Source: Mytilus edulis (lineage: Eukaryota). Taken from it: a stretch of 64,000 bases of DNA. The stretch covers positions 71,052,001-71,116,000 of the forward strand of contig NC_092352.1 in the NCBI RefSeq assembly GCF_963676685.1, read 5' to 3'. The translations under genes were made by a program, and so were the position numbers. Shown piece after piece: positions 19,301 through 64,000 of the stretch (positions are counted from its first letter, which is position 1; each line of letters begins with the position of its first letter). The notes beneath the pieces are model-generated. The model was not told the origin of the DNA, did no database searches, and saw only the letters and a program-made list of their open reading frames with translations.

Positions 19301-22300
19301 AAATTGTCGATATTAAAGAATTGGGACATGATGATTCCAAACGAGATGTAATTTGCAAGATCGTAAATGCAAAGAACATACCACACAAATCTGTGGATTT
19401 TATTGTAAAGATTGTAAACAATTTATCTGTGGCAAGTGCATTACAAAAGACCACTGTGGACATGATGCAGTAGATGAAGAAGAATATGAACATGAAATGG
19501 CCATGCTTCTTGCATCTCAGAAAGAGGCTGAGAGGAAGTTCAGAGAGCTAACCCTATCAAATCCAAGTGCAGTAAGTTCATATAAATCTGGATCCACAGA
19601 AATGGCAGAAGTAAGAATTATATTGATTAGACAATTTTCCACAGAATTTACCCGAATTTCCAAGGTCTTATCCACTACTGATGATTCTGCGTGGATAGTA
19701 AACCCGTCAGCTAAATTGATGCAGCATGTGAAAATGACAGAAGGCGGTCTCCAGGTCCTATCAGAGTTCAAAATGCACATTGGTGACATGGAATATATGT
19801 CAAAAAACAAGATATTTTTATCAGTTGGTGGTACACCATGGCTGCAGCTGCTTGATGAACAAATTGGAAAAATATCTTTTACCCACTACAATTTTAAACC
19901 CCTGTGGACTCGTGGCATACATGTAACAAGGGATCAGAAAATAATCATAGGAGCTGTCACACCAGGTTTACCAATCACTTTTTCCAGAAGACGTTTAGTG
20001 GTAGTCATGGATATTGACGGGACCGTTTTTAAACGATATGAATTTGACTGTAATCAGAAACCATTGTTTACACTTCCTTACAAAATAACTAGCACAAGTA
20101 ATGGTAACATCTGGGTGATAGATAAGTTAGCTACAACTGGTAGGGGTAGAGTGGTAGTGTTGGGACAGGCAGGAAACGGTATACATGTACAAATATACAA
20201 TGGTCATCATGATGTTAACTCGCATAGCAAACCATTCACTCCTACAGGCATAATTATTACACCCGCAGATAATGTAGTTGTGGCAGACAATGCCTGTAAT
20301 ACACTACATATACTCAACTGTGATGGCACATTCATGACATACATAAAAACTGATGGTATAGGGATTATATCCCCGTATTCTCTTGCCATATCTGGACCAG
20401 GACAATTCATTATAGGATGTGCTTCTAAAGGTTCTGTGAAAGCTAAACTTTATCAGCTACAATACTCTGGATTTTAAATGATAGTTTTTTAACTTGCTAA
20501 TGTTTTAGAATGGAATATATTCAACTCTTGTCTGAATGATATATATATATTAGTTGTTATCCATTTTGATGACTATACAAATTTAATGTAAGGAATTAAA
20601 TAAGTTTATCAGATTGCAATTTTCTTTTTTGAGAAACTCACCTAGTAGCATTAAATGCATTAATAAAAACTTAAAGTATTAATTTCTGCATTTAAAGTAT
20701 CAAAGAACCCTTAAAACTAGCAATAATCCTCTTCTTGTAATTCCCCCTGCCGTAGCGGAGGGGGCATTAAGTTTAACCCTTGTCTGTCTGTACAAGGCAT
20801 AGTTTAGGTTTCAGTTCTGTAACTTTAATTTGCCTCAATTAAATGTTATGAAACATAATGCTTATAACCACATGACACAGATCTAGTTTAAAATTTAGTG
20901 TTGTCATTTTATCGGTTCTAGAATTGTGTTCTCTTACTTTAGTTTGCCTCAACCAAATGCTATATGAAAATTATACACTATGTTTAAAATCATTACCACA
21001 AAATACAGATCAAGTGGGAATTTTGGTGGTGTCACTTTAACAGTTCTAAACTTATGCCCTTTTACAAATGGAAAAATTGCTGATCTTTTTGTTTCTGTTC
21101 TCTAACTTAAGTTTACCTCAACCAAATTTAGAAAACTGTATATACACTTATTACCACAACACTCAGATCAAGTACACAATTGGGTAAGGTCACATTTACG
21201 GTTCATCAGTTATGTCCCTTTATTATAAACTTTATTTAATATGCATGCGGGGTATCATCTGTGTCCCATGGACAACATTCCCCATTTATCTTTTTTTTCA
21301 ATTTACCTAACACAAATTATTTAATATTTTGCTTTATCTAGAAGATAAATTTGAGCAGGATGTTTTGTAAATCAAAGTATAATCAGCAAGTTAATCTTAA
21401 TAAATAAATAACAGTATCTTACTCATTATGTACATGTTACTATCTCCTACTTTACATATGGAAAATTATCAGTTTTGTATAAAAGACATCAAGCTCATAT
21501 GAATGATAAATTAGATTTTATAAGTGTTCAGTTCAGCTAAAATCAGTTTACATTCATTTTGTCAACACTATGGGGTACTCACAGTCAACACATAAGGCCC
21601 CTAACTCTGTCAGATACCAGTTGTGTGAGGGAGGGACACGACCAATCCAATGGAAATGCTGGGAATGCTCATTACTGATGTGTAGAAGATGTAGAAGTGT
21701 AGTCCATCCTATGTTAAATTATGCTGTCAGACATAAAATAGTTTTTATTAAAGAATCAAAAAGTGGTACTGCTGAAGGAAATGTTTCTTTTAGTGATTAT
21801 AAGTGCCTAGCACATACCTCAAAGATTTGCTGTTTTTATTGTAAGGATTGTGAACAATTAATCTGTAGGAAGTGTTCAACCAAAGCCCATCGAGGACATG
21901 ATACTTTGAACGAGGAGGACTATGTAAGAGAAATTAACAAGATTCTGAAAACTCTTAGAGAGAGTGAGAAGAAATTGAGCAATTTTACCTTGGCCAACAT
22001 TGTACTTGGAAAATTAAATTCATTAAAATCTGGAGCATCAGAGAAACCTGAGATTAAAGTTTTTAAAACATTTTCCTCGAACGTTAAATTTATTAGTTCG
22101 GTTATATCTTCTCCTGATGATTCAGTATGGATAGTAGACTTTTCAGCTAAAGTTTTGCAGCAAGTGAAACTGACAGGAGACAATATTCAGGTCATTTCAC
22201 AATGNNNNNNNNNNNNNNNNNNNNNNNNNNNNNNNNNNNNNNNNNNNNNNNNNNNNNNNNNNNNNNNNNNNNNNNNNNNNNNNNNNNNNNNNNNNNNNNN

Positions 22301-25300
22301 NNNNTGCACAAATAGCAACCACTGAATTAGGTTCCTGAATTGCGACATGCCTATCATTTCTTTTCATTTCATTGGAGGGTAAAATCCTGTTGACAGCATT
22401 ACAAAGGTTACGATACTTGGGTTGTACTCTTAAATTGTATATCTAGCAATACTATATGTTAGGTAGTACTCTTACTCAAATACCTAAACTAACAGGGGCG
22501 GATGCAGGAATTTTCGAAAGGGGGGGGGGGGGGGGGGGGGGGGGTGCTAACCCAGGGCACCCAGGGCAAAGGGGGGGTGCAAAACATATGTCCCGATACA
22601 AATGCATTGATCGGCAAAAATAAAGGGGGGGGTTGCGCACCCCCGGAAACCCCCCCCCCCCCCCCCCCCCCCCCCCCTGGATCCACCACTGACTACATCC
22701 TTAAAATTTTTACTGGGAAAAATATAAGTTGTTTATTGGTTGATGTGGTCTATTGTATTGTGTATTTTTTTGGGCGACTGCTTTTATCCCATTTTATTTT
22801 TATATGATAAAAAAAAAGTGAGTTTAAAATGAGGATTGATTTTTAATATGATATTAAGTAATCTGAACAACTGATCAACATCATATATTTATTATCAGCA
22901 ATTGTTTACTTTTATGGTGACATACATAACACATAAATAGACATATCATGTGCTGCATCTGATTGTGTACCTCACTTAGTTATATTTATATGATTAGTTC
23001 AGTTTTGTTTATTGTACAATTTGATTTTAAACAACTTATACAACTTACAATATCTCTATCAAAATGGCTGACTCAAATTTAAAAACTAAGGACAGATTGC
23101 AGTAGGATGCAGCGATAATCAAGAATCGACAAGTACTGATTCTGATGGATTTATAAGCTTTAGAGATATGAAATGCAAAGAACATGAGATGAAGGGCTGC
23201 AGCTTTTATTGTAAAGACTGTAAAGAATTTATCTGTGTCAAATGCATTACAAAAGCCCATAAAGAACATGATGTGGTAGACGAGGAAGATCATAATACTG
23301 ATAGGAACAAGCTGCTAAAAACTCAGAAGGAAACAGCGATAGAACTTAGCAAGATGTCATTGTCCAAAGTTAGTCCAATGACATCTGGATCTACAGTGGT
23401 GAAAGATGAAACAGAACAACAACAAAAACCTGAGTTAAAAGTTGTCCAACATATTTATACAGATTATAAACCTATTTATGGTTTGTCATCCTATTCAGAT
23501 GGTTTAGTATTGCTAAAAACTCATTGTTATGGAAATCTGGAATATGCGGAAGTGACAGGAGACAATATTAAGGTCCTATCCAGTTTCCCTGTTCAAGTGT
23601 TAGACATGACAGTTGATTCAATCAACAACATTTTTTTATCAGTTCAAAGCAGTACAAGACTGAAGGTGATCAATGTAATAACTGGGCAAATATCAGATTC
23701 TATATACAATGTAGCACCATTTTGGACCAGTGGTATACATATTACCAAAGATCAAAAAGTAATATTAGGAGTAGTAACACCAGGAAGACAAATGGTGGTA
23801 GTCATGGATGAGAAAGGGAATCATATAAAACTTTATGAACTTGACAGCACCAACAAAGCAATATTTACAGGTCCTTGCAGAATAACTAGCACCAAAAATG
23901 GTAACATCGGGGTGGTAGATGTTTTGGATACATCATGCAGAGGAAAAATAGTGGTACTGGGACAGACAGGAAGCATACAAATATACAATGGACATCCTAA
24001 TGTCAACAATCAGAACACGCCATTTAATCCTACAGGTATCCTTACAACACCAATGGATAATATTGTAGTGACTGACTGTAATAATCATACACTGCATATA
24101 CTGAGTTGTGATGGATTATTCATAGCATACTTCAGCACTAGTTTAAATGTAGATATACACTTACCATATTCTCTTGCTTGCTCTGGACCAAGATATTTCT
24201 ATATTGGATGTTCAGTAGGAGGCTACGGTTCTATGAGTACTAAACTTTTCAAAGTGCAGTACTCTGGATTTTGAAAAATTAAAAAACAATTATATAAGTT
24301 TTTAATTTCACAGTTTAATGCTGGTGTTTTCAAAATTGAATTGGTATGACTTTGTGACCAATTTTAACATTTATTCAAACTGGTCAATTACAAACTTTTA
24401 ATTATATTGCACATTGTTGAATACTAAGAAATGAAAATGAACATTAGATTTTGAACTCCCAAATATTTTTACCTCTAGCATTATTGACAACATTAATTGT
24501 TGAAATGTGCATCTGGTGCATTGAGATTGGTAATGTTAAAAGTTATTGTGCTTTTAACTATGCAAAATAAAATGAAAGACATGTTACTATTTTGAAATAC
24601 TAATTGTTTTAAAGGCATGTGTTCACTCTCAAATACTTCCTATGAGGACTCTATACTGATATGAGTGATTGACAATTTTTTTTAATTTAAAACCTTATTT
24701 ATAGTCTTTGTAATAGTTGAAAGTAATAAGCAGTAAGAAAAATTCAACTGTTTATTGACTTAATATTTGTGTTTGATTGGTACTGTAATTTTACTAAATA
24801 AAATATTTGGGTTATCTTGCATTTGTTTACACTTGTGTCAAGGAGTATTGATATATATTAGTTCTAAAAAAATAATAAATTGACTTTGAAGCTGAATTTC
24901 TCAATGCACATTGGTTTATAGATGTGATTTTGATTTGCTTTGTAACCCCCACCCCAATATTTTGCCAACATTGTTTTTTTTAATTATAGAGGAAACTGAA
25001 TAACTATTCTAACTACTAGTTACTATACTTTTTGTTGGTTTTTGTTTTGTTTGGGGGGGGGGGGGGAGTGTTGCTTTTCACTATTAGAAGCATTTTCAGT
25101 CCAATCCTATCCAATGCCAATGATGTAATTCATTGTATTTGTCACCAGCTATTGGAATGACATTTGGACATTTGTGTGAAGAGCTGGATGTCTCACATCA
25201 TATAATTTCTATCCGACATTATAAGTTTCCTTCTTGTAATTATTGTCTCATCTCCTTGACTTTGTGTTCATGGTTATTGGCTGTGGAGGAAATTGTTTGT

Positions 25301-40768: not shown

Positions 40769-41803
40769 TCAATTTTTATTCACATTCACATGAACTCTAT
40801 TTATATGTCTCTGCACATGCTGACTTAGTCGAAATTCTTTACCACACACACCACATGAAAATGATTTTTCACCTGTGTGTATAGCATAATGATTTGTCAA
40901 GTTGTGACGATTACGAAAAGCCTTATCACACATATCACATTTATAAGGTTTTTCACCCGTATGTATTCTTAAATGAGATCTCAAGCTATGATGCTGATTA
41001 AAACTGTGCCCACATATAACACATTTGTATGGTTTTTCACCCGTATGGATGCTCATGTGCCTCGTTTTCGAATTTTTCTGACCAAATTGTTTCCCACATA
41101 CTTCACAAGAATATGGTTTTTCACCAGTATGGGTTGTTGCATGCATTTTAAGATTTTCAGCCAATCGGAATTCTTTCCCACAGATACCACAAGGATATGG
41201 TTTTTCACCTGTATGTTGTCGATGATGAACTTGAAGATGTCCACTCTGACTGAATGCTTTCCCGCACGTTTCACATCTATGAGATTTTTCACCAGTATGT
41301 GTTTTTAAATGTCTTGTCAAGCTTTGACTCTGAGTAAACTCTTTATTGCACAGATTACACTTATAATGTCTTTCGTTAGTATGGGTTTTAACATGTCTTT
41401 TTAAATTTCCTTTTTGGACGAATTGTTTTCCACATTCTTCACATTTATAAGGTTTGTCACCAGAATGTGTTTTTAAATGTGCATTTAAATTACTTATTTG
41501 TGTAAACACTTTATCACAGATGCCGCAATTAAATTGTTTTTCACCTGTGTGTATCACCATGTGTTTTTGCAGCGTTCCTTTTTGAGTGAACATTTTACCA
41601 CATTCATCACATTTATAACGTTTGTATCCAGTATGCGTAGGGTAATGTAATTTTAAGTAGCTAGGTTTCGTAAACTCTTTACCACATAGATCACATCTGC
41701 AACATTTAACGCTAGTATTAGAGAGTTTCAGGTTTTCAGTGTAATTCAACTCTTTATATACAAGTTCTTCAGTAATGAGGGATATTTCTCTTAAAGTTTC
41801 CAT
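40769..41803 (-). CDS. C2H2 zinc-finger protein, 11 tandem fingers, no effector domain seen
   Basis: Uninterrupted ORF from ATG 41803 (METLRE...) with 11 CxxC-12x-HxxxH fingers and TGEKPY linkers. Putative 5' UTR splice sites: acceptor at 41933, donor gtgagt at 43323-43328. Confidence 0.9.
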   Translation of the reverse strand: METLREISLITEELVYKELNYTENLKLSNTSVKCCRCDLCGKEFTKPSYLKLHYPTHTGYKRYKCDECGKMFTQKGTLQKHMVIHTGEKQFNCGICDKVFTQISNLNAHLKTHSGDKPYKCEECGKQFVQKGNLKRHVKTHTNERHYKCNLCNKEFTQSQSLTRHLKTHTGEKSHRCETCGKAFSQSGHLQVHHRQHTGEKPYPCGICGKEFRLAENLKMHATTHTGEKPYSCEVCGKQFGQKNSKTRHMSIHTGEKPYKCVICGHSFNQHHSLRSHLRIHTGEKPYKCDMCDKAFRNRHNLTNHYAIHTGEKSFSCGVCGKEFRLSQHVQRHINRVHVNVNKN

Positions 41804-42639
41804 TTTCAAGAAACAAACAAATATGCCCTGGTCAAGAGGTTTCAGTCTGTAAGTATCAGGAAAACTGTTGTTTATCCATTAATCTCAGTGAGATTTTCAG
41901 AAAAAGCTGTTCTTTGACCCAGTGAGCTGCATCTGAAGAACAAAAATATTGATACAGTGACCTTAATACACGGATAAATCTCCTGTTGACAGAGGTAGCT
42001 TAATCGGCAGAAAATGTTGTTTCTAAAAAAGTATGTGTGCTTGATTATCAGAAATAATAACTGTTGTTGTAACAGTGGTTAACAGAAAAGCTGTCGTTCA
42101 ATTTGTAGAAAGACTGTCCTTACCAGAATAAGTGGATATCAGCAGACTGACATTACAGAAAACAAATTAATGAATATTATAGAATGATGCAATGTTTTTT
42201 AATAAAAATCAAATTATATTTTATAATCTTCAACAATTAACATGATTAATTTTTAAATTGTTCTTTGTTTTTTGGAGGGAGTGGCTCTTTGATTGTTGTT
42301 TTAAAATATCTACAGATGGCATTTGCAATTAATTTTCACGGACAATATGTTAGTGTTGTTGTGTTGTTGTTTTTTTGCAGGGGGGGTTACTGATTCACTA
42401 CTGCTGATACAAAATTTTACCATATAAAAAAAAGTCATGCAAATCAGTATTCTATTTTAATTGTAAATGTCTTGAAAACATTTTTTTTTTTTTAGATAAA
42501 TAATATCCCCAGAGACACATTTAATTATGTATATTATACAATCATGACAATATTGTAGTCATTGTAGTATACATGGTACAGTGTATATGTCTCTGATGTC
42601 ACTTATTGTGTTACATACCTTTTGTGTACATCACATTAT

Positions 42640-48455: not shown

Positions 48456-49621
48456 AAAAATAAAAAAAATATTTAAAAAAAAAATATATGCAAAACTAGC
48501 ATCCTAGTAAAAGTAAGATGCTCCAGTACATTATTATTTTAACAACAGCATCTGCATCAAATTTTAATGCTGGAAGCATATAAAATCAAACAGACAGCAT
48601 ATGTACTATAAAAAGATGCTACCTTATACAAAATATGAAATAAATTCAGAAATACTTTGACAAATTATTCAAAATTAGCATCTTTTCATTGACATATGCT
48701 ATTTCCTAGTTATTTCACGGAATGTATGAAAAAAACTGTACATGAGAATTTGAAATTTTAGTTGAGAACGCATTGTAGCCGCCGACTCTGATTAAAATAT
48801 TTTAATTAAAAAACCGACAAAATAGCATATTTCTACAGCATAAAAGCGTACTTTTTTCATTTTTTCTTTAGTACTACAAGGAATTAAACCAATAATACAT
48901 CAGTGTAATACATAGCCTCAATTTCTTACTTAATGTTTTGTTATCAGAGTGTTTATTGAATATGCGTATCATAGTCTATAAATATATCACTATATTTGAG
49001 AATGTTGTCCACTTTTTTCTCATTTCATCAAAACCATACTTCTATATATAATAACATTTATCAACAAGAGCAATTTATTAATCTCGAAGCTAAATAACTG
49101 CGAGTAGGTCTGAAAAATGACGAAACGTATTTCATAACCAAAAGAGAAAAAAGCCTGAACATTAGTCATACACAAAATATTATTACATAAAAAAAATGAG
49201 CACTTCATTTCATAATTATTCTAGATACAATTTATTTTACAATAATCTTTGTCAATCATCCATATGACATTTGGACCAATTGTTGTACATGAAGAATTAA
49301 ACAATAACAGAAGTGACCATTGGCAAAAATTAAAGTGACCATTACTCCAATTATGTAAATCTATCCTGCAGACAAATATTAACCTTTTAAAGAACATGGA
49401 AGATCAAATGTTATAAAAACATACTAGCAACGTCTGAGAATCAAGCATTTAATATCATTATTCACTACACGTTGACATCTAAGTATTTAAACGATTCCGG
49501 ACCAGTGTGACCATTGTAAAGATTTTTACTTTCGATCATTCAAATTTTTGTATTTCTTGTAAAACGATATTATTCATTTCACTTCACATTCGTTTAAATT
49601 TGAGAAAAAATCCGTATTGAT

Positions 49622-50551
49622 ATGATGCATGAGGTTGAGGATTTAGTCACACCTAACGATACCTTACAAAGACACACAAGAACACAGACTGGTAATACAC
49701 TTCATGAATGTGATGTTAGTGCAAGAGAATTTAGTAAAGGTGTAGATATGAAGAAACACACGAGAACACACACTGGTGGAAACCGTCATGTATGTGATAT
49801 ATGTGGTAAAAGGTTTAGTCAGAATGGTGGTTTACAGATGCACATGAGAACGCATACGGGTCATAAACCCTATGCATGTGATGTGTGTGGTAAAGGGTTT
49901 AGTCAGAATGGTGGTTTACAGAGTCACATGAAAACACATACAGGTGATAAACCCTATGCATGTGATGTGTGTGATAAAGGATTTAGTCAGCATGGAAGTT
50001 TACAGATTCACATGAGAACACATACAGGTGATAAACCCTGTGTCTGTAATGTATGTGGTAAAGGATTTAGTCAGAATGGTAGTTTACAGATTCACATGAG
50101 AACACATACAGGTGATAAACCTCATGTCTGTGATGTATGTGGTCAAGGGTTTCGTCAGAAAAGTCATTTACGGGTTCACTTGAGAACACATACAGGTGAT
50201 AAACTTATATGTAAACTCCATGCATGTGATGTATGTGGTAAAGGGTTTAGATGGCAAGGTAATTTACGGAGACACATGAGAACACATACAGGTGATAAAC
50301 CCCATGAATGCGATGTATGTGGCAAAGATTTTAGTCATCTTGGTAATTTGCAGATTCACATCCGAAGACATACAGGTGACAAACCCCATGCATGTGATGT
50401 ATGTGGTAAAGCATTTATTGAACTTGGCGAGTTTAAGAGACACATTAGAATACATACAGGTGATAAACCTCATGACTGTGGTGTATGTGGTAAAGGGTTT
50501 ATTCAGCATTATAATTTAAAGCGTCACATGAAAATACATACAGGTGATTAA
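49622..50551 (+). CDS. C2H2 zinc-finger protein, unit A (9 intact + 1 degenerate finger)
   Basis: 309-aa open ORF with TGDKP linkers; ends at TGD* where the linker Lys is replaced by TAA. Confidence 0.8.
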   Translation: MMHEVEDLVTPNDTLQRHTRTQTGNTLHECDVSAREFSKGVDMKKHTRTHTGGNRHVCDICGKRFSQNGGLQMHMRTHTGHKPYACDVCGKGFSQNGGLQSHMKTHTGDKPYACDVCDKGFSQHGSLQIHMRTHTGDKPCVCNVCGKGFSQNGSLQIHMRTHTGDKPHVCDVCGQGFRQKSHLRVHLRTHTGDKLICKLHACDVCGKGFRWQGNLRRHMRTHTGDKPHECDVCGKDFSHLGNLQIHIRRHTGDKPHACDVCGKAFIELGEFKRHIRIHTGDKPHDCGVCGKGFIQHYNLKRHMKIHTGD

Positions 50552-51609
50552 CTACGTGAATTTGATGTATGTGATAAAAGATTTAGTCAGCATGAAAGTT
50601 TACAGGTTTATATGAGAACACATACAGGTGATTAACTCTATGAATGTGATGTATGTGGTAAAGGATTTAGTTTACATGGTAGTTTACAGATTCACACGAG
50701 AACACATACAGACGATAAACCTTATGACTGTGATGTATGTGGTGAAGGGTTTAGTCAGAATGGTAGTTGACAGATCCACATGAGAACACATACAGGGGAT
50801 GAACCTCGTGTCTGTGATGTGTGTGGTAAGGGGTTGAGTCGGAAAAATTGTTTACAGATTCACATAAAACACATACAGGTGATAACCTGCATGCATGTGA
50901 GGTATGTTGCAAACGATTTAGTCTTAGTAAATTGCAGATCCACATTTAAAGACATACAGGTAACAAACCCCATAAATGCGATGTATGTGGTAAAGGATTT
51001 AATCAGCATGGTCGTTTACAAATTCACACGAAAACACATCCCGTGTCTGTGATGTATGTGGTATAGGATTTATTAGCATGGTAGTTTACAGATTCACATG
51101 AGAACATATGCAGGTGATTAACCCCATGTCTGTGATGTATGTGGTAAAGGATACAGATTCACATGCTCGGGAACACATGCAGGTGGTTAACTCCATGAAG
51201 GTGATGTATGTGGTTAAGGGTTAATACAGCATGGCACTTACAGATTCACATTAGAACACATGCAGGTGATGATCTCTGTGAATGTGATGTATGTGGTAAA
51301 GGATTTATTCAGCATGGTTCTTTACAGATTCACACGAGAACACATGCAGGTGATAAACCCCATGTCTGTGATGTATGTGGTAAAGGGTTTAGTCAGCAAG
51401 GTACTTAACCGATTCACATGAGAACACATGCAGTTGATAAACCCTATGTCTGTGATGTATGTGGTAAAGGGTTTAGTCAGCATGGTAGTTTACAGATTCA
51501 CATGAGAACACATGCAGGTGATAAACCCCATGTCTATGATGTATATGGTAAAGGGTTTAGTCAACAAGGTACTAAACCGATTCACATGAGAACACATGCA
51601 GGAAACTAG
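50552..51609 (+). pseudogene. Degenerate zinc-finger tail of unit A
   Basis: 84-bp finger repeats continue past the stop with further stops and frameshifts. Confidence 0.8.
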
Positions 51610-52734
51610 GAGCAGTATACATAATTGTATTATATGTCTCTACAGGTACTTGTCTCAGACTTTGTTTCCCCTATATACATTAACACTGTTATATTAAGGT
51701 ATATAGGGAAAACAATGAGACAAGTGTCTGTGTATGTCTCTGGTTGTATAATGTGTCTCTAGTATCGCTATACATGCAACTCCTTGCTTTTTATGTTAAA
51801 CCGTGTGATATTTTGACTTAAGTTCAAATAAAGTATTTCCATGTCGAAACTATACCTTTTTCTGACATGTGTGGACAATGCAGCATATAAGCTGATTAGA
51901 GCTACTGGTTTTAGAGTACAGAAACCGATAATTCTTATTTGAGCACAGTGCAAATATGCTCTCCTATTTAAAGTTTTTTTTTTCAAAAGAAGCTTTCAAC
52001 AAAGGTTCTTCAGCTATCCAAAGTCCGTAGGCTTTCATTTGATATCAAGACTTACCGAAATATGTTACTTGTTGTTTTGTTTTAAATATGTACCTCTGTC
52101 TGATCTGGTACTAATTAGTAGTGCAGTATACCTATAACTGAACCAAAATAAAATGACTTCTGTTTTACACAATGAAAACTATATATGGATAATAATAGTG
52201 ACCAATGTGACTCAGACTCTTCCCATTAACACCAGTTCTAATTTGTTAATATCTACTCAAATGGAAAATGTCTTACCTAAGTGTCTTTCCTTTTGTCATC
52301 AGATTGTTTATTAAATATTAATATAAAAGTCTTTGCATCAAATATAAATGAGATTTTTGTCCACATTTTTGGAACTAACGGGAAGTTTGTTTTTTATCAA
52401 ACCGGCATACCTCAATATAATCTGGGACTATTATACTAACATAGTCTCATAGTCTCAGATATAATTACATTTATCAACAAGAGCAATTTATTTATCTCGA
52501 AGCTAAATGACTGCGAGTAGGTCTGAAAAAAAAGACGAAACTTATTTCAAAACCAAAAGAGAAAAAAAGCCTGAACATTAGACATACACAACATATATTA
52601 TTACATAACAAAACCAAATGAGAACTTCATTTTATGAATAGTCTATATACAATTTATTTTACAATCATCTTTGCCAATCATTCATATGACATTTGGACAA
52701 ATTGTTGTACATGAAGAATTAAACAATAAAAGAA

Positions 52735-54297
52735 GTGAATTATAATTTAAAGCTTCATATGAAAACGCACACAGGCGATACAATTCATGACTGTGGTGTA
52801 TGTGGTAAAGAATTTAATCGGTATAGTAGTTTACAGATTCACATGAGAACACATACAGGTGATACACATACACGTGATACACCTTATGTCTGTGATGTAT
52901 GTGGTAAAGGATTTAGTCAGAATGGTAGTTTACAGATTCACACGAGAACACATACAGGCGATTAACTCCGTTAATGTGATGTATGTGGTAAATGATTTAG
53001 TCAACATGGTAGTTTTAAGATTCACATGAGAACACATGCAGGTGACAAACCTTATGTCTATGATGTATGTGGTAAAAGATTTAATCAGCATGAAAGTTTA
53101 CAGATTCACATGAGAACACATGCAGGTGACTTAATCCGTGAATGTGATGTACGTGGTAAATGATTTAGTCAACATGGTAGTTTTAAGATTCACATGAGAA
53201 CACATGCAGGTGACAAACCTTATGTCTATGATGAATGTGGGAAAGGGTTTAGTCAGAATAGTAGTTTACAGATTCACATGAAAATGCATACAGGTGATTA
53301 ATTCCGTGAATGTGATGTATGAAAAGGACTTAGTCAGCATGGTAGTTTACAGATTCACATGAGAACACTTGCAGATGATAAACCCCATGTATTTGGTAAA
53401 GGATTTAGTCAGCATGGTAGTTTACATATTCACACGAGAACACATTCAGGTGATAAAACCCATGTCTGTGATGTATGTGGTAAAGGATTTAGTCGGCATT
53501 GTAGATTACAGATTCACACGACAACACATTCGGGTGATTAACTCCATGACTGTGATGTATTTGGTAAAGGATTTGTTCTGTATGGTTGTTTACAGATTCA
53601 CATGAGAACATATGCAGGTGATTTACCCCGTGTCTATGATGTATGTGGTAAAGGATATAGGAAGTATGGTAGTTTACAGATTCACATGAGAACACAATAT
53701 GTGTTTACCCCGTGTCTGTGATGTATGTTATTAAGGATTTAGTCAGTATGGTAGTTTACAGATTAACATGAGAACACATACAGGTGTTTAACCCCGTCTC
53801 TGTAATGTATAATGTTATAAGGGATTTAGTCAGTATGGTAGTTTACAGATTAACATGAGAACACAACATGTGATTTACGCCGTGTCTGGGATGTATGTGG
53901 TAAAGGATTTAATCAGTGTGGTACTTAACAGATTCACATGAGAACACATTCAGGTGTTTAACCCCGTCTCTGTGATGTATAATGTTATAAAGGATTTAGT
54001 TAGTATGGTACTTAACAGATTCACATGAGAACACAACATGTGATTTACCCCGTGTCTGTGATGTATGTGGTAAAGGATTTAGTCAGTATGGTACTTAACA
54101 GATTCACATGAGAACACATTCAGGTGTTTAACCCCGTCTCTGTGATGTACAATGTTATAAAGGATTTAGTCAGTATGGTACTTAACAGATTCACATGAGA
54201 ACACAACATGTGATTTACCCCGTGTCTGTGATGTATGTTATGAAGGATTCAGTCAGCATGGTACTTAAAAGATTCACACGAGAACAAATGTAGGTAA
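52735..54297 (+). pseudogene. Zinc-finger unit B, 5'-deleted pseudogene
   Basis: The upstream region (agaagtga, 52738) is joined directly to the QHYN-type finger; many stops; ~169-bp dimer repeats at ~53700-54240. Confidence 0.8.
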
Positions 54298-54964
54298 CTA
54301 GTTGCAGTATAAATAATTATATTATATGTCTCCACAGGCAATTGTCCTATAATTTGTTTTCCTATGCACAATAACACTGTTATATTAAGGTATATAGGGA
54401 AACAATGAGACAAGTGTCTGTGTATGTCTCTGGTGGGTTGTATTATATGTCTCTGGTATCGCTATACATGCAACTCCTTGCTTTTCATATATGATCATAT
54501 ATTAAACCGTGTGATATTTTGACTTAAGTTCAAATAAAGTATTTCCATGTCGAAACTATACCTTATTCTGACATGTGTGGAAAATGCAGCATATTAGCTG
54601 ATTAGAGCGTACTGGTTTTGGAGTACAAAAACCGATAGTTCGTATTTGAGCATCAGTGCACATACAAAATGTATGCTCTCCTATTTAAAGTTTTTTGTTC
54701 AAAAGAAGCTTTCAACAAGGGTTCTTCAGCTATCCCAAGTCCGTAGGCTTTCATTTGATACCAAAATTACCGAAATATGTTACTTGCTGTTTTGTTTTAA
54801 ATATGTACCTCTGTCTGATCTGGTACTAATCATATATATATATATATATAGTTGTTCAGTTGTTCAGTATACCTATAATCGAACCGAAATACATTGACTT
54901 CTGTTTTAACAATGAAAAATATATATGGATAATAATAGTGACCAATGTGACTCAGACTAACTTA

Positions 54965-55230
54965 AGTTTGGAACTATTGTCTAAAACCTAAATGTTTGGA
55001 ACTGGTCTGACGGTTTGGAACTATTGTCTGAACCCTAAATGTATGGAACGGGTCTGAAACCTAAATGTATACAACGGGGCTAAACCTTAATGTATCAAAC
55101 GGGCAGAAACCTAAAGGCATAAAACAGGGCTGAACCGAAATGTATCAAACGGGCTGGTTCCTAAATGTATAAAACGGGGCTGAACCTAAATGTATCACTT
55201 GAAACGGGCTGAAACGTATCAAAAATGTAT
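54965..55230. repeat. ~26-bp degenerate minisatellite (aacctaaatgtatNNaacgggNctga) within a unit-B-specific insertion (54959-55583)
   Basis: Directly visible; absent at the equivalent positions of units A and C. Confidence 0.7.
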
Positions 55231-56164
55231 GGAAACTTTTCCAACTGTTGTAAACTTTCGACGTCTGAAACTTTATTATTAAAATATATTTATAAAACTG
55301 TTGGAACAGGGTAGAACTAAGGTATGGTTTAACAGCAAACACTCACTGCAATAGTGAGAGATGTGGAACGCAAAACCTTAGCACTAACCCTGTTTATACG
55401 TCTTCTATGGAACCAGAACGGTCTATATCTTCTCAGCAGGTTTCAAACACTTCACTTTGTTTGACTAATCCTGCTACTCGTCTTTAAACATTAACGGTCC
55501 TACGTTTCTATTCTTCTTCTTTCAACGTCTCCGATACGAATGACAAAAAGGGCTGTTTTTATTTGATCAAAACAATAGTTCTGTATAATTACATTTAACA
55601 ACAAGAGCAATTTATTTATCTCGAAGCTAAATAACAACGAGAAGGTCTGAAAAAAAGACGAAACTTATTTCAAAACCAAAAGAGAAAAATCCTGAACATT
55701 AGACATACACAACATAGTTATAACATAAAAAAAATGAGGACTTCATTTTGTAAATATTATATATACAATTTATTTTACAATCATCTTTGACAATCATTCA
55801 TATGACATTTGGACAAATTGTTGTACATGAAGAATTAAACAATAACAGAAGTGACCACTGGCAAAAATTAAAGTGACCATTACTCCAATTAAGCTAGTAA
55901 ATGTATCCTGCAGACAAATATTAACCTTTTAAAGAACATGGAAGATCAAATGTTATAAAAACATGCAACGTCTTAGAATCAAGCACTTCTATCATATTTC
56001 ACTACACGTTTACATCGAAGTATTTAAACGATTCCGTACCAGTGTGACCATTGAAAACATTTTATTAACTTTCGATCATTCAAATTTTTGTATTTCTCGT
56101 AAAACGATATAATTTTATTTCACTTCACATTCGTTTAAAATTGAGAAAAATCAGTATTAATAGG

Positions 56165-58230
56165 ATGCAGGAGGTTGAGGATTTAGTCACACCTAATGAT
56201 ACCTTACAAAGACACACAAGAACGCAGACTGGTAATACACTGCATAAATGTGATGTTAGTGTCAGAGAATTTAGTAAAGGTGTAGAAATGAAGAAACACA
56301 CGAGAACACACACTGGTGGAAACCGTCATGTATGTGATATATGTGGTAAAAGGTGTAGTCAGAATGGTGGTTTACAGATGCACATGAGAACGCATACGGG
56401 TGATAAACCCTATGCATGTGATGTGTGTGGTAAAGGATTTAGGCAGCAAGTTCATTTACAGAGTCACATGAAAACACATACAGGTGGTGATAAACACTAT
56501 ATATGCATGTGATATATGTGGTAAGGGGTTTAGTCAGAATGGTGGTTTACAGAGTCACTTGAGAACACATACAGGTGATAAACCTCATGTTTGTGATGTG
56601 TGTGGTAAAGGATTTAGTCAGAATTGTGGTTTACAGATTCACATGAAAACATATACAGGTGATAAACCCTGTGCATGTGATGTGTGTGGTAAAGGGTTTA
56701 AACGGAATGCTGGTTTACAAATTCACATGAAAACACATACAGGTGATAAACCCTATGCATGTGATGTATGTGGTAAAGGGTTTAGTCGGCAAGGTTATTT
56801 ACGGATTCACATGAAAACACATACAGGTGATAAACCCTATGTCTGTGATGTATGTGGTAAAGGATTTAGTCAGAATGGTAGTTTACAGATTCACATGAGA
56901 ACACATACAGGTGATAAACCTCATGTCTGTGATGTATGTGGTCAAGGGTTTAGTCAGCAAGGTCATTTACGGGTTCACTTGAGAACACATACAGGTGAGA
57001 AATTTATATATAAACTCCATGCATGTGTTGTATGTGGTAAAGGGTTTAGTCGGCAAGGTCATTTACGGGTTCACATGAAAACTAATACAGGTGATAAACC
57101 CCATGTATGTGATGTATGTGGTAAAGCAATTATTGAACTTGGCGAGTTAAAGAGACACATTAGAATACATACAGGTGATAAACCTCATGACTGTGGTGTA
57201 TGTGGTAAAGGGTTCATTCAGCATTATAATTTATAGCTTCATATGAAAACACATACAGGCGATAAAATTCATGACTGTGGTGTATGTGGTAAAGAATTTA
57301 TTCGGTATAGTAGTTTACAGATTCACATGAGAACACATACAGGTGATACACCTCATGTCTGTGATGTATGTGGCAAAGGATTTAGTCAGAATGGTAGTTT
57401 ACATATTCACAAGAAAATACATACAGGCGATTAACTCCGTGAATTTGATGTATGTGGTAAAAGATTAAGTCAGCATGAAAGTTTACAGATATATATGAGA
57501 GCACATACAGATGATTAACTCTATGTCTGTGATGTGTGTGGTAAAGGATTTAGTTTACATGGTAGTTTACAGATTCACACGAGAACACTTGCAGATGATT
57601 AACCTTATGACTGTGATGTATGTGGTGAAGGATTTAGTCAGAATGGTAGTTGACAGATCCACATGAGATAAACCTCGTGCATGTCTTTGATGTGTGTGGT
57701 AAAGGGTTTAGTCGGAAAAATTGTTTACAGATTCACATGAAACACATACAGGTGATAAACTGCATGCATGTGATGTATGTTGCAAACGATTTAGTCGTCT
57801 AAGTAAATTGCAGATCCACATTCAAAGACATACAGGTAACAAACCCCATAAATGTGATGTATGTGGTAAAGGATTTAATCAGCATGGTCGTTTACAAATT
57901 CACACGAGAACACATCCCGTGTCTGTGATGTATGTGAAATAGGATTTATTAGCATGGTAATTTACTGATTCACATGAGAACACATGCAGGTGATTAACCC
58001 CATGTCTGTGATGTATGTGGTAAAGGATACAGATTCACATGCTCGAAAACACATGCAGGTGATGATCTCTGTGAATGTGATGTATGTGGTAAAGGGTTTA
58101 GTCAGCATGGTAGTTTACAGATTCACATGAGAACACATGCAGGTGATAAACCCCATGTCTATGATGTATGTGGTAAAGGGTTTAGTCAGCAAGGTACTAA
58201 ACCGATTCTCATGAGAACACATGCAGGTAA
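56165..58230 (+). pseudogene. Zinc-finger unit C: frameshifted ORF plus degenerate tail
   Basis: ATG at 56165 (MQEVEDLVTP); +7-nt slippage at ~56484-56505; TAG at 57234-57236; dead fingers to ~58230. Confidence 0.8.
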
Positions 58231-59669
58231 CTAGTTGCAGTATACATAATTGTATTATATGTCTCTACAGGTACTTTTCTCAGACTTTGTTTCCCCTATA
58301 TACCTTAACACTGTTATATTAAGGTATATAGGGAAAACAATGAGACAAGTACCTGTGTATGTCTCTGGTTGTATAATGTGTCTCTAGTATCGCTATACAT
58401 GCAACTCCTTGCTTTTTATGTTAAACCGTGTGATATTTTGACTTAAGTTCAAATAAAGTATTTCCATGTCAAAACTAAACCTTATTCTGACATGTGTGGA
58501 CAATGCAGCATATAAGCTGATTAGAGCTACTGGTTTTAGAGTACAGAAACCGATAATTCTTATTTGAGCACAGTGCAAATATGCTCTCCTATTTAAAAAA
58601 TTTTTTTCAAAAGAAGCTTTCAACAAGGGTTCTGCGGCTATCCAAAGTCCGTAGGCTTTCATTTGATATCAAGACTTACCGAAATATGTTACTTGTTGTT
58701 TTGTTTTAAATATGTACCTCTGTCTGATCTGGTACTAATTAGTAGTGCAGTATACCTATTTATAACTGAACCAAAATAAAATGACTTCTGTTTTACACAA
58801 TGAAAACTATATATGGATAATAATAGTGACTATGTGACTCAGACTTTTCCCATTAACACCAGTTCTAATTTGTTAATATCTACTCAAATAAAAAATGTCT
58901 TACCTAAGTGTCTTTCCTTTTGTCATCAGATTGTTTATTGAATATGAATATAAAAGTCTTTGCATCAAATATAAATGAGATTTTTGTCCACATTTTTGGA
59001 ACTAACGGGAAGTTTGTTTTTTATCAAACCGGCATACCTCAATATAATCTGGGACTATTATACTAACATAGTCTCATAGTCTCAGATATAATTACATTTA
59101 TCAAGAGCAATTTATTTATCTCAAAGCTAAATGACTGCGAGTAGGTCTGAAAAAAAAGACGAAACTTATTTCAAAACCAAAAGAGAAAAAAAGCCTGAAC
59201 ATTAGACATACACAACATATATTATTACATAACAAAACCAAATGAGAACTTCATTTTATGAATATTCTATATACAATTTATTTTACAATCATCTTTGCCA
59301 ATCATTCATATGAAATTTGGACAAATTGTTGTACATGAAGAATTAAACAATAAAAGAAGTGACCACTGGCAAAAATTAAAGTGACCATTACTCCAATTAT
59401 GTAAATGTATCCTGCAGACAAATATTAACCTTTTAAAGAACATGGAAGATCAAATGTTATAAAAACATACTAGCAACGTCTGAGAATCAAGCATTTAATA
59501 TCATTATTCACTACACGTTGACATCTAAGTATTTAAACGATTCCGGACCAGTGTGACCATTGTAAAGATTTTTACTTTCGATCATTCGAATTTTTGTATT
59601 TCTTGTAAAACGATATTATTCATTTCACTTCACATTCGTTTAAATTTGAGAACAATCCGTATTGATAGG

Positions 59670-62169
59670 ATGGATGAGGTTGAGGATTTAGTCACACCTA
59701 ACGATACATTACAAAGACACACAAGAACACAGACTGGTAATACACTTCATAAATGTGGTGTTAGTGCCAGAGAATTTAGTAAAGGTGTAACCTTGAAGAG
59801 ACACACGAGAACAAACACTGGCGAAAACCGTCATCATGTATGTGATGTATGTGGTAAAGGGTTTAGTCAGAATGGTAGTTTACAGATGCACATGAGAACG
59901 CACACGGGTGATAAACCCTATGCATGTGATGTATGTGATAAAGGATTTAGTCAGCATGGAAGTTTACAGATTCACATGAGAACACATACAGGTGATACAC
60001 CTCATGTCTGTGATGTATGTGGTAAAGGATTTAGACATCATGTTGGTTTACAGAATCACATGAGAACGCATACAGGTGATAAACCCCATACATGTGATAT
60101 ATGTGACAAAGGCTTTAGTTGAAAAGACGTTTTACAAATTCACATGAAAACACATACAGGTGATAAACCCCATGCATGTGATGTATGTGGTAAAGGGTTT
60201 AGTCGGCAAGGTCATTTACGGGTTCACATGAAAACACATACAGGTGATACACCCCATGTATGTGATGTATGTGGCAAACATTTTAGTCATCTTAGTAATT
60301 TGCAGAGTCACATTCGAAGACATACAGGTGAAAAACCCCATGCATGTGATGTATGTGGTAAAGGATTTATTGAACCTGGCGAGTTTAAGAGACACATTAG
60401 AATACATACAGGTGATAAACCTCATGACTGTGGTGTATGTGGTAAAGGGTTTATTCAGCATTATAATTTAAAGCGTCACATGAAAATACATACAGGCGAC
60501 TAAATTCATGACTGTGGTGTATGTGGTAAAGAATTTATTCGGTATAGTAGTTTACAGATTCACATGAGAACACATACAGGTGATACACCTTATGTCTGTG
60601 ATGTATGTTATAAAGGATTTAGTCAGCATGGTAGTTTACAGATTCACATGAAAATACATACAGGCGATTAACTCCGTGAATGTGATGTATGTGGTAAATG
60701 ATTTAGTCAACATGGTAGTTTTAAGATTCACATGAGAACACATGCAGGTGACAAACCTTATGTCTATGATGTATGTGGTAAAAGATTTAATCAGCATGAA
60801 AGTTTACAGATTCACATGAGAACACATGCAGGTGACTTACTCCGTGAATATGATGTACGTGGTAAATGATTTAGTCAACATGGTAGTTTTAAGATTCACA
60901 TGAGAACACATGCAGGTGACAAACCTTATGTCTATGATGTATGTGGTAAAAGATTTAATCAGCATGAAAGTTTACAGATTCACATGAGAACACATGTAGG
61001 TGACTTACTCCGTGAATATGATGTACGTGGTAAATGATTTAGTCAACATGGTAGTTTTAAGATTCACATGAGAACACATGCAGGTGACAAACCTTATGTC
61101 TATGATGTATGTGGTAAAAGATTTAATCAGCATGAAAGTTTACAGATTCACATGAGAACACATGCAGGTGACTTACTCCGTGAATATGATGTACGTGGTA
61201 AATGATTTAGTCAACATGGTAGTTTTTATATTCACATGAGAACACATGCAGGTGACAAACCTTATGTCTATGATGTATGTGGGAAAGGGTTTACTCAGCA
61301 TGGTAGTTTACAGATTCACATGAGAACACATGCAGGTGACTTACTCCGTGAATATGATGTACGTGGTAAATGATTTATTCAACATGGTAGTTTACACGAG
61401 AATACATGCAGATGATAATTCAAATGTCTGCGTGTATGTGGTAAAGGATTTAATCAGTATGGTAGTTTACACAGTCATACGAGAACACATTCAGGTGATA
61501 AACCTCCTGTCTGAGATGTATGTGGTAAATAGTTTAGTCACCATGGTAGTTTACAGATTCACATGAGAAAACATTCATATGGTTAACCCCATGTATGTGA
61601 TGTATGTGGTAAAGGATAAGTCAGCATGGTAGTTTACAGATTCACCTGAGAACACACTCAGGTGATAAATCTCATGTCTGTGATGTATGCGGTAAAGGGT
61701 TTACTCAGCATTATAATTTAAAGCTTCATATGAAAACACATACAGACGATAAAATTCATGACTGTTGTGTATATGGTAAAGGATTTAATCGTTATAGTAG
61801 TTCACAGATTCACATGAGAACACATACAGGTGATAAACCTCATGTCTGTGATGTATAAAGTAAAAGCTTTAGACAGCAAGGTCATTTACGGGTTCACTTG
61901 AGAACACATACAGGTGATAAATTTATATATAAACTCAATGTATGTGATGTATGTGGTAAAGGGTTTAGTCGGCAAGGTCATTTACGGATGCACATGAAAA
62001 CACATACAGGTGATAAACTCCATACATGTACATGTGATGTATGTGGTAAAGGGTTTAGTCGGCAAGATCATTTACGGATTCACATGAAAACACATACAGG
62101 TGATAAACTCCATGTATGTGATGTATGTGGTAAAGGGTTTAGTCGGCAAGGTCATTTACGGATGCACAT
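59670..62169 (+). pseudogene. Zinc-finger unit D: in-frame TGA at 60120-60122, stop at 60503, long tail interrupted by the LTR
   Basis: ORFs 59553-60122 and 60144-60503 share a frame; the tail contains 168-bp dimer repeats. Confidence 0.8.
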
Positions 62170-62763
62170 TGTTATGATATTGTAATTATTGTATTTATTT
62201 ATGTTGGCCTGATTTGTATTGTGTGGCCTGATAGTTGTTTGCAGAATAATTTTAGAAATGTGCAGTTTAGAAATCTCTGGAACAATTAGAGAATGATTGG
62301 AACTTTCCAGAATGATCATTATAAAAGATGTGTTATATAAACTTCTACCGTTTACTAGAAACTTCCGTTGTAACTTTCTAGGATGTTCCATTATAGAGTG
62401 TTCTAGAATTTTCCTTGACAATTATATATATACAGACACTAAAGTTAAACACACACTCTTGGGTTTGGACTTAGCCATTGATAGACATTAGTATTCACCG
62501 CATTTGGATTGACACTTTAATTCTACAAACAACATCATACTGGATTGTGACCGTAGTAGTGAACGTAATATTCAGATTGGATTCCGAAAGATATCCGGAT
62601 ACAGATAAAGATAAAAGATTGGACTCATATTTTAACAGTTAAGTTAACAGTAATATCTGTGTAATACTTCTTGTAAACTTTTGTATAATAAATATTGTTA
62701 AATTTTACTATTGATTTGTGTCTTTTGTTGGCTACAATTTAAAGGCGATTTCTGGCCGTAACA
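62170..62763 (+). repeat. 5' LTR (594 bp)
   Basis: TGTTA...TAACA termini; TATA-like run at 62423-62432; AATAAA at 62687-62692; followed by the PBS. Confidence 0.88.
62269..62414 (+). promoter_or_regulatory. Cluster of heat-shock elements (inverted nGAAn arrays) in LTR U3
   Basis: Perfect gGAAc-tTTCc-aGAAt at 62299-62313 and gTTCt-aGAAt-tTTCc at 62400-62414; imperfect or partial arrays at 62269-62283, 62357-62366 and 62375-62389. Confidence 0.65.
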
Positions 62764-62768
62764 GAAAT

Positions 62769-62786
62769 TGGGGGCTCGTCCGGGAT
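62769..62786 (+). promoter_or_regulatory. Primer-binding site, tRNA-Pro
   Basis: TGGGGGCTCGTCCGGGAT is the 18-nt complement of the tRNA-Pro 3' end (same as the MLV PBS), 5 nt after the LTR. Confidence 0.93.
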
Positions 62787-62853
62787 CTGAAAATATCTTA
62801 TTCAAAATTTGTTTAGTAATTTTTATTATAAATAGCCAACAAAATTCTACAAA

Positions 62854-64000
62854 ATGGCATTTGATGCTGGTAAACTTTTGAAAACGCCAGACCTGGAGGG
62901 GTTTGATAATTTAAAGAAAGAGGAATTAGTGTTGCTTGCAAAGCATCTGAAATTAGATTTTAAAGTATCTATGAGAAAACAAATTATAAAAAATTTGGTT
63001 ATAGACAAATTAGTTGACGCAAAGGTTTTAGGTGAAGAGGCTCTTGAACTTAAGGTCGAAAATATTGACGCCTTTAAATTAAAACAGCTTGAATTAGAAC
63101 ATGAACTCAAATTAAAAGAACTGGAATTGAAGGAGATGGAGAAAAGAAAAGAAGATGAACTTAAATTAAAACAAGATGAACTTAAATTAAAACAGGCAGA
63201 ACTGGAAATGAAGGAAAGGTTGGAAATGGATAAAAAAGAAAAAGAAGACGAATTTAAATTAAAAGAACTTGAAATGAAGTTAAAAGAACTTGAAATGAAG
63301 GAAAGGCTAGAGATGGAGAAAATGAAAATTGAAATGGTCAAGGAAGAAAGCAACACTAAAGTCCAGCAGAAATCAGAATATTTTGATGCAGCAAAAAATA
63401 TACGTTTGGTTCCCAGTTTTTGTGAAAAAACAGTCGATAAATATTTTCCACAGTTTGAAAAAATTGCTCATAATTTGAGTTGGCCAAAGCCATATTGGAC
63501 TACAATGCTACAAAGTGTTTTGGAGGGCCGCTGAAATATACTCCGCACTTCCATCAGAAAAAAGTTCTGATTATGACACGTTGAAACAGGAAGTTTTGAA
63601 AGCTTATGAGCTAGTACCAGAAGCATATAGACAGAAATTTAGATCTTATAAAAAGTTTGATTCGCAAACCTATGAGGAATTTGCTCGGGAAAAAGAAGAT
63701 CTATTTGATAAATGGCTTACTTCAAAGAAAACAGATAACAATTTTGATAACCTAAGACAATTGATGTTATTAGAAGAGTTCAAACAATGTGTTCATTTAG
63801 ACTTAAAAACACATTTAGACGACAAAACTGTTGGGACAATACATGATGCAGCTGTAATTTCAGATAATTATACCCTTTCACATAAAAGAAGTTTCAAGGG
63901 TCAAAATGTTAATAATTCAAGTGGAAATTACAAAAATCAAAGTACTGAGCGTACTGATAGTAAGCATGTTGCACAGAATAAGAGTCAGTCCAGTTATAAT
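62854..64000 (+). pseudogene. gag: gag (coiled-coil + capsid with SCAN-like domain), frameshift at ~63526
   Basis: ORF 62854-63534 (..IRLVPSFCEKTVDKYFPQFEKIA..W..LQSVLEG) continues in the +1 frame from 63527 to the window end: AAEIYSAL..DYDTLKQEVLKAYELVPEAYRQKFR..FDKWL..LRQLMLLEEFKQCV..AAVISDNY. Confidence 0.85.

Follow-up and report, generated by a model that had tools for sequence, protein, structure and literature searches.

The long terminal repeat (LTR) of a young Gmr1-type Ty3/Gypsy retrotransposon family in the Mytilus edulis genome carries what, judged by its sequence, is a real and conserved promoter composed of heat-shock elements (HSEs) and a TATA-like run, and its mode of action would be like that of the HSE-bearing LTRs of Macrostomum lignano and of ONSEN. 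We consider it probable that this LTR is a heat-inducible promoter driven by heat-shock factor (HSF). Heat or other proteotoxic stress would lead host HSF trimers to bind the phased nGAAn arrays at 62299-62414, bound HSF would fire transcription from the TATA at 62423, and the result would be a stress-timed burst of genomic RNA from intact family copies. The reading is built on motif anatomy, enrichment, conservation, likeness to hsp70 promoters and a genomic HSF gene, a match to the HSF DNA-binding domain being present in the genome; from these we infer HSF binding and the start site, as well as induction and whatever gain in transposition it may bring. An initial annotation of the window (the whole 64,000-nt stretch of DNA that was analysed, in which the element begins) had described the family as wired to the host heat-shock response. 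That description holds in so far as the array beats AT-matched shuffles, is kept among copies, has no counterpart in 21 further LTR families of the genome and has an hsp70-like layout.

Table 1 Features of the element and its promoter in the window. Copy counts refer to 53 full-length family LTRs.
Feature	Position	Strand	Remarks
Decayed C2H2 zinc-finger tandem array	49604..62169	+	84-nt unit; element inserted in same orientation
Target-site duplication, 4 nt	62166..62169	+	second copy behind 3' LTR
5' LTR, 594 nt, TG...CA	62170..62763	+	partner LTR present; ends and junctions checked in 30 copies
Imperfect HSE, one core mismatch	62269..62283	.	badly preserved among family copies
Distal HSE, perfect three-pentamer	62299..62313	.	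gGAAc tTTCc aGAAt; imperfect fourth pentamer to 62318
Two further TATA-like runs 3' of distal HSE	62320-62327, 62334-62341	+	additional to the initial annotation
Middle phased pentamers	62352..62389	.	one-mismatch HSEs at 62352 and 62375
Proximal HSE, perfect three-pentamer	62400..62414	.	gTTCt aGAAt tTTCc; aGAGt just ahead
TATA-like run, likely core promoter	62423..62432	+	preserved in 52/53 copies
AATAAA poly(A) signal, then GT-rich run	62687..62692	+	in 40/53 copies
Primer-binding site (PBS)	62769..62786	+	17-mer with 156 exact genome matches
gag, coiled-coil-rich N-terminus and SCAN capsid domain	62854..64000, continues past window	+	SCAN match

The element has direct LTRs (TG...CA), a PBS, a polypurine tract and a target-site duplication. 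Its 3' LTR lies 8.1 kb downstream (G000:C9:71122247-71122840) and differs from the 5' LTR at 8 of 594 positions. The internal order is SCAN-gag, protease region, integrase, reverse transcriptase (RT) and RNase H, with a SCAN domain in gag (PF02023, E 3.5e-12) and, in locus L031, Integrase_H2C2 and rve ahead of RVT_1 and RT_RNaseH. This order is like that of the Gmr1 clade, which the passages available to us describe as carrying a SCAN-type gag followed by PR, IN and RT/RNase H (PMC6238403; bioRxiv 10.1101/2025.03.03.638093). We therefore assign the element to the Gmr1 type of Ty3/Gypsy on the basis of its SCAN gag and domain order. Among retrieved matches to the PBS 17-mer, 28 of 30 are members of the LTR family. 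The PBS is presumably of the tRNA-Pro type; ARAGORN detected no tRNA in either of the two PBS matches outside the family.

The window copy is damaged by a gag frameshift near 63520-63534, a nested BEL/Pao remnant, additional lesions in pol and an insert of 205 nt in RNase H, and is unable to move on its own. Constraint on the HSEs would stem from the active lineages of the family and not from this broken copy. The nested remnant (L031 2123-4494) retains only DUF1759, DUF1758 and a protease between identical 186-nt ends, which lack an HSE, and is flanked by a 5-nt target duplication.

The SCAN-bearing element sits in sense orientation inside the C2H2 array (window 49604-64000, L031/L032), both parts being broken. 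Such a juxtaposition of a SCAN element and a C2H2 array has been proposed as the origin of vertebrate SCAN zinc-finger genes. Targeting of zinc-finger arrays was rejected, as among 90 loci only the window insertion (L001, L002) lies in such an array, alongside one single-motif match. The suggestion that the 3' LTR could make the zinc-finger sequence behind it heat-inducible is likewise unsupported: an AATAAA precedes that sequence in the LTR and the array is broken by stops. The first ATG past the 3' LTR does open a frame of 147 codons with 4 intact C2H2 fingers (L031 8844-9287), but with the AATAAA ahead of it and the rest of the array stop-broken, a heat-inducible zinc-finger gene was discarded. 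The stretch from the TATA to the end of the LTR contains no ATG. Apart from the decayed array, the window contains an intact-looking 369-aa C2H2 zinc-finger frame on the - strand (40769-41878) and, read from translations only, three tandem B-box/NHL-like (TRIM-type) open frames (19335-24274).

Both perfect three-pentamer HSEs reported in the initial annotation, with the aGAGt extension of the second, were found where it had placed them (62299-62313 and 62400-62414), and they are the only two in the whole window. One-mismatch HSEs start at 62269, 62304, 62352, 62375 and 62395, and the TATA-like run that it placed beside the cluster is present at a gap of 8 nt past the end of the proximal HSE; transcription would be expected to start about 30 nt 3' of this run. 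The site at 62352, which has one mismatch in the window copy, is perfect in a second subfamily. The distal HSE and the two TATA-like runs behind it could possibly form a second HSE-TATA module: across the 53 copies the first run is present in 18, the second in 35 and either one in 49. At 62320-62327, 31 of 53 copies have an AATAAA-containing run without a TATA-like reading, a possible poly(A) signal within U3.

The array is enriched over a shuffled background. When the LTR was shuffled 20,000 times with dinucleotides preserved, 108 shuffles contained at least one perfect HSE and a single one contained at least two. The genome as a whole holds 22,192 perfect HSEs in 1.368 Gb (13,229 for the reversed-pattern control), a rate that gives 0.0096 expected per 594 nt; most of these sites are surely inert. 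About 4-7% of them belong to the LTR family. Among the 67 distinct perfect TTC-GAA-TTC sites with a TATA just behind them that were listed for 67 Mb of one contig, 38 were assigned to this family by eye. With approximate pentamer weights, as in all our HSE scores, the LTR array scores 16.5 at 5-nt phasing, compared with 3.9 at 4-nt and 6.5 at 6-nt phasing. STAT motifs have the form TTC-N3-GAA or TTC-N4-GAA, and since neither spacing occurs in the LTR, a STAT-responsive promoter was ruled out.

Control LTRs were drawn from the same genome. Of 38 stretches around other integrases, SCAN matches or odd PBS matches, 20 had a repeat pair; removal of 1 spurious pair, 1 of the same family and 4 duplicates left 14 families, to which 7 of 8 BEL/Pao stretches were added. 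None of the resulting 21 families, some with LTRs cut at the edge of the retrieved stretch, has a perfect HSE. In one other integrase-before-RT family with a different PBS (L154, G000:C1:124588000-124597999), a one-mismatch HSE precedes the TATA by 23 nt.

The HSE-TATA layout of the LTR resembles, at the level of sequence, that of the host's own hsp70 promoters. The intronless hsp70 promoters L069, L070 and L073 contain one-mismatch arrays whose distances to the TATA are 9, 9 and 14 nt and score 12.3-13.8, against 16.5 for the LTR on the same approximate weights. No perfect HSE occurs less than 1,500 nt from the start in the 10 readable hsp70-family loci of 14 checked. The idea that the HSE had been captured from the promoter of a host hsp70 gene was considered and rejected, because blastn gives no match between the LTR and 4 hsp70 loci and the likeness exists at motif level only. 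An imperfect GAATGATC run is common to the distal HSE of the LTR and the upstream arrays of hsp70 loci L069, L071 and L072, which have no wider likeness.

The initial annotation took ONSEN as its precedent. In this Ty1/Copia element of Brassicaceae, LTR HSEs recruit HSF and cause heat-induced transcription according to the source passages available (PMC12801592; PMC13602373), and the mechanism would be alike; ONSEN is however a plant Copia element of an unrelated lineage, and for it HSF binding and transposition have been demonstrated. The closest precedent is the heat-induced Ty3/Gypsy families of Macrostomum lignano. As described in the parts of PMC12801592 at hand, canonical HSEs occur there in 6 of 137 LTR families, of which 4 were induced more than 250-fold and 2 were uninduced, and HSE mutation abolished reporter activity. 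The HSE families named are Mlig-id115 (Mag), id36 and id55 (CsRN1) and id38 (Gmr1/Osvaldo), the induced set including one Gmr1/Osvaldo family with RT annotated before integrase. By that account the Macrostomum and Mytilus families have in common an animal Ty3/Gypsy LTR, 1-4 canonical three-pentamer HSEs ahead of the start and the same motif definition, and HSE-bearing families are a minority in both hosts (6/137 in Macrostomum, 1/22 examined in the Mytilus genome). They differ in phylum and lineage, and induction was measured in Macrostomum, whereas in Mytilus it is predicted. A shared lineage with id38 is unsupported: that family is annotated PR-RT-RH-IN, in contrast to IN before RT in the Mytilus element, and the PBS word did not turn up in supplement 5 of PMC12801592. 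The same source, as far as available, also describes heat-induced coral LTR elements and Helitron1_CE of Caenorhabditis elegans, which like the Mytilus family spreads HSEs through a genome but is a rolling-circle DNA transposon.

Could HSF bind these sites under conditions unrelated to acute heat? Its basal or developmental activity (germline, embryo) or metal, oxidative or hypoxic stress might provide the state to which the element is timed. HSF has roles outside heat shock, and the same sequence evidence serves this explanation equally, as it cannot separate one HSF trigger from another. We nevertheless regard it as unlikely: the spacing between HSE and TATA matches the one seen in the host's intronless hsp70 genes, and similarly built Macrostomum LTRs are heat-induced.

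The family to which the heat-inducible promoter would belong is numerous and young. The LTR search gave 748 candidates; 40 of these were scored, and 30 were retrieved. The genome has 396 exact copies of the LTR end sequence and 356 of the proximal HSE together with its flank, and there are therefore at least about 420 LTRs. In 10 LTR pairs the two members differ at 0-11 of about 594 positions, and a single open gag-pol frame of 1,570-1,600 aa is present in many copies; from this near-identity and these open frames we conclude that the family is young. At L038 and at G000:C1:54406757-54417819, head-to-tail tandem elements share LTRs, with three LTRs about 5.3-5.5 kb apart.

The family is present in 20 of 24 listed runs, which fall under four organism codes plus the label gut metagenome; runs available as contigs only show neither level nor strand. 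Over 62100-64000 we used four raw-read runs whose treatments are not given (6-18% of each run read), the sense direction in the three stranded runs being fixed by the zinc-finger flank. In these three runs of unstated treatment, antisense depth exceeds sense depth over both U3 (55-62 vs 8-18) and gag (17-25 vs 8-10). The fourth run covers the LTR and hardly covers gag, and no pile-up of read ends was seen behind the TATA in the runs over this interval. Such an excess is what might be seen if the LTR were an HSF-type promoter by sequence that the host has silenced through piRNA or methylation and that is not heat-inducible today, and the 2 of 6 uninduced HSE-bearing Macrostomum families fit the same picture. 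Because the run treatments are not given, antisense-rich RNA fits a silenced promoter and the off-state of an inducible one alike, the latter being likewise silent without stress; the very recent insertions and many open gag-pol copies moreover speak of recent activity. We accordingly give silencing little credence.

Conservation of the array was assessed in 53 full-length LTRs from 60 loci, after exclusion of 5 copies that were interrupted or partial and of 2 matches outside the family. The copies are young and related to one another, and for some elements both LTRs are among them, so the counts are not independent. At least one perfect HSE is present in 53 of 53 copies, which makes it a trait of the family and not an accident of a single copy; the proximal HSE is perfect in 49 and the distal HSE in 50, in agreement with the expectation that HSE phasing is preserved across the family. 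Copies are 85-99% alike. The second subfamily, 85-90% alike, has three perfect HSEs, L150 has four, and L161, which is only 81% identical, retains two including the proximal one (the latter read by eye).

Variants common to at least 4 copies fall at 0 of 30 pentamer-core sites, with the cores chosen from the window copy, but at 21 of 123 neighbouring sites (Fisher p 0.014) and at 4 of 20 spacer positions. Rare variants affect cores (12/30) and neighbours (49/123) alike. This pattern would be expected if multiplying lineages need the cores while inserted copies decay freely. Site rates from IQ-TREE differ mildly (0.79-0.81 for cores, 1.0-1.1 otherwise). The array also changes in length, by 10 nt in 15 copies, 20 nt in 3 and 5 nt in 1, with 1-nt events in 3 copies. 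Against the heat-inducible reading we count the mild difference in site rates and the non-independence of copies, together with the antisense-rich RNA, the lack of a read-end pile-up behind the TATA, the two uninduced Macrostomum families and the large number of mostly inert perfect HSEs in the genome.

Sister elements were found in other hosts. Scanning metagenome contigs yielded 75 loci, and scanning viral contigs for the PBS yielded 2; an RT search in viral contigs yielded 34 candidates, none of them confirmed. In an RT tree of 58 rows, all elements retrieved here, the LTR family and 16 metagenome rows form one clade (100/100), with L185 tagged RT-IN because the locus spans two tandem units. 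LTR-side DNA was available for 16 sister elements, 12 of them in the tree and four (L195, L208, L216, L250) placed by integrase identity or PBS. Where measured, RT identity to the sisters is 54-67%, and by blastn four sister LTRs are unalignable with the window LTR apart from one 39-nt match.

The sisters were scored for an HSE-like site of at least 12 within 45 nt before the TATA, a test designed after the sequences were seen. Such a site is present in 7 of 16 sisters (gaps 7-24 nt) and in 2 of 25 control LTRs (Fisher p 0.017), or, among TATA-bearing LTRs only, in 7 of 12 and 2 of 15 (p 0.037). Both control positives are other integrase-before-RT elements, and ordinary Gypsy and BEL LTRs give 0 of 19. 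The 9 negative sisters include several partial ones. Perfect HSEs among the sisters are confined to L185, a tandemly arrayed element with two (3700-4410), each with a TGATGTCA run ahead, and its tandem neighbours have one-mismatch sites. We take these TGATGTCA runs to be CRE/ATF-like, and they suggest a second stress input.

The sister elements suggest a lineage-wide tendency to HSE promoters, with which old retention and repeated gain both fit. It is possible, although we lean against it, that the HSE-TATA promoter is an ancient feature shared throughout one Gmr1-type sub-clade (with IN ahead of RT and a common PBS) in several animal hosts, kept through full turnover of the LTR. The array could instead be a by-product of short duplications of 10 nt within U3, or it could bind some other factor that recognises TTC/GAA (STAT or BCL6-like), its spread reflecting one recent founder. 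This view could draw on the 10- and 20-nt slippage events, on one run at 62375 that we presume to be BCL6-like and on the close likeness of copies, but is very improbable given shared variants that spare cores and not spacers, the lack of a STAT-spaced site in the LTR, the preference for 5-nt phasing and the like layout in sisters with unalignable LTRs.

The literature covered, outside which lie most subscription journals and preprint supplements, contained no account of a mollusc LTR with HSEs or of an HSE promoter shared by a whole clade. For the Gmr1 clade, the available passages of PMC6238403 and bioRxiv 10.1101/2025.03.03.638093 make no mention of HSE promoters, and the mollusc survey does not contain the word 'heat'. 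If induced, the family would add a mollusc and an element of true Gmr1 order to the few validated LTR retrotransposons that tap the heat-shock response. The signal among the sister elements questions the view of repeated, independent HSE gain taken for Macrostomum in PMC12801592, as far as that source was available, and suggests a stress-specialist lineage. Were the promoter indeed an old trait, the whole retrotransposon lineage would be a heat-shock specialist, and the family would provide a ready-made set of heat-inducible promoters in the Mytilus genome. Some 400-750 LTRs scatter hsp70-like promoters over this genome. With a young family and many open copies, heat waves could raise the activity of the element in a host that may face them.
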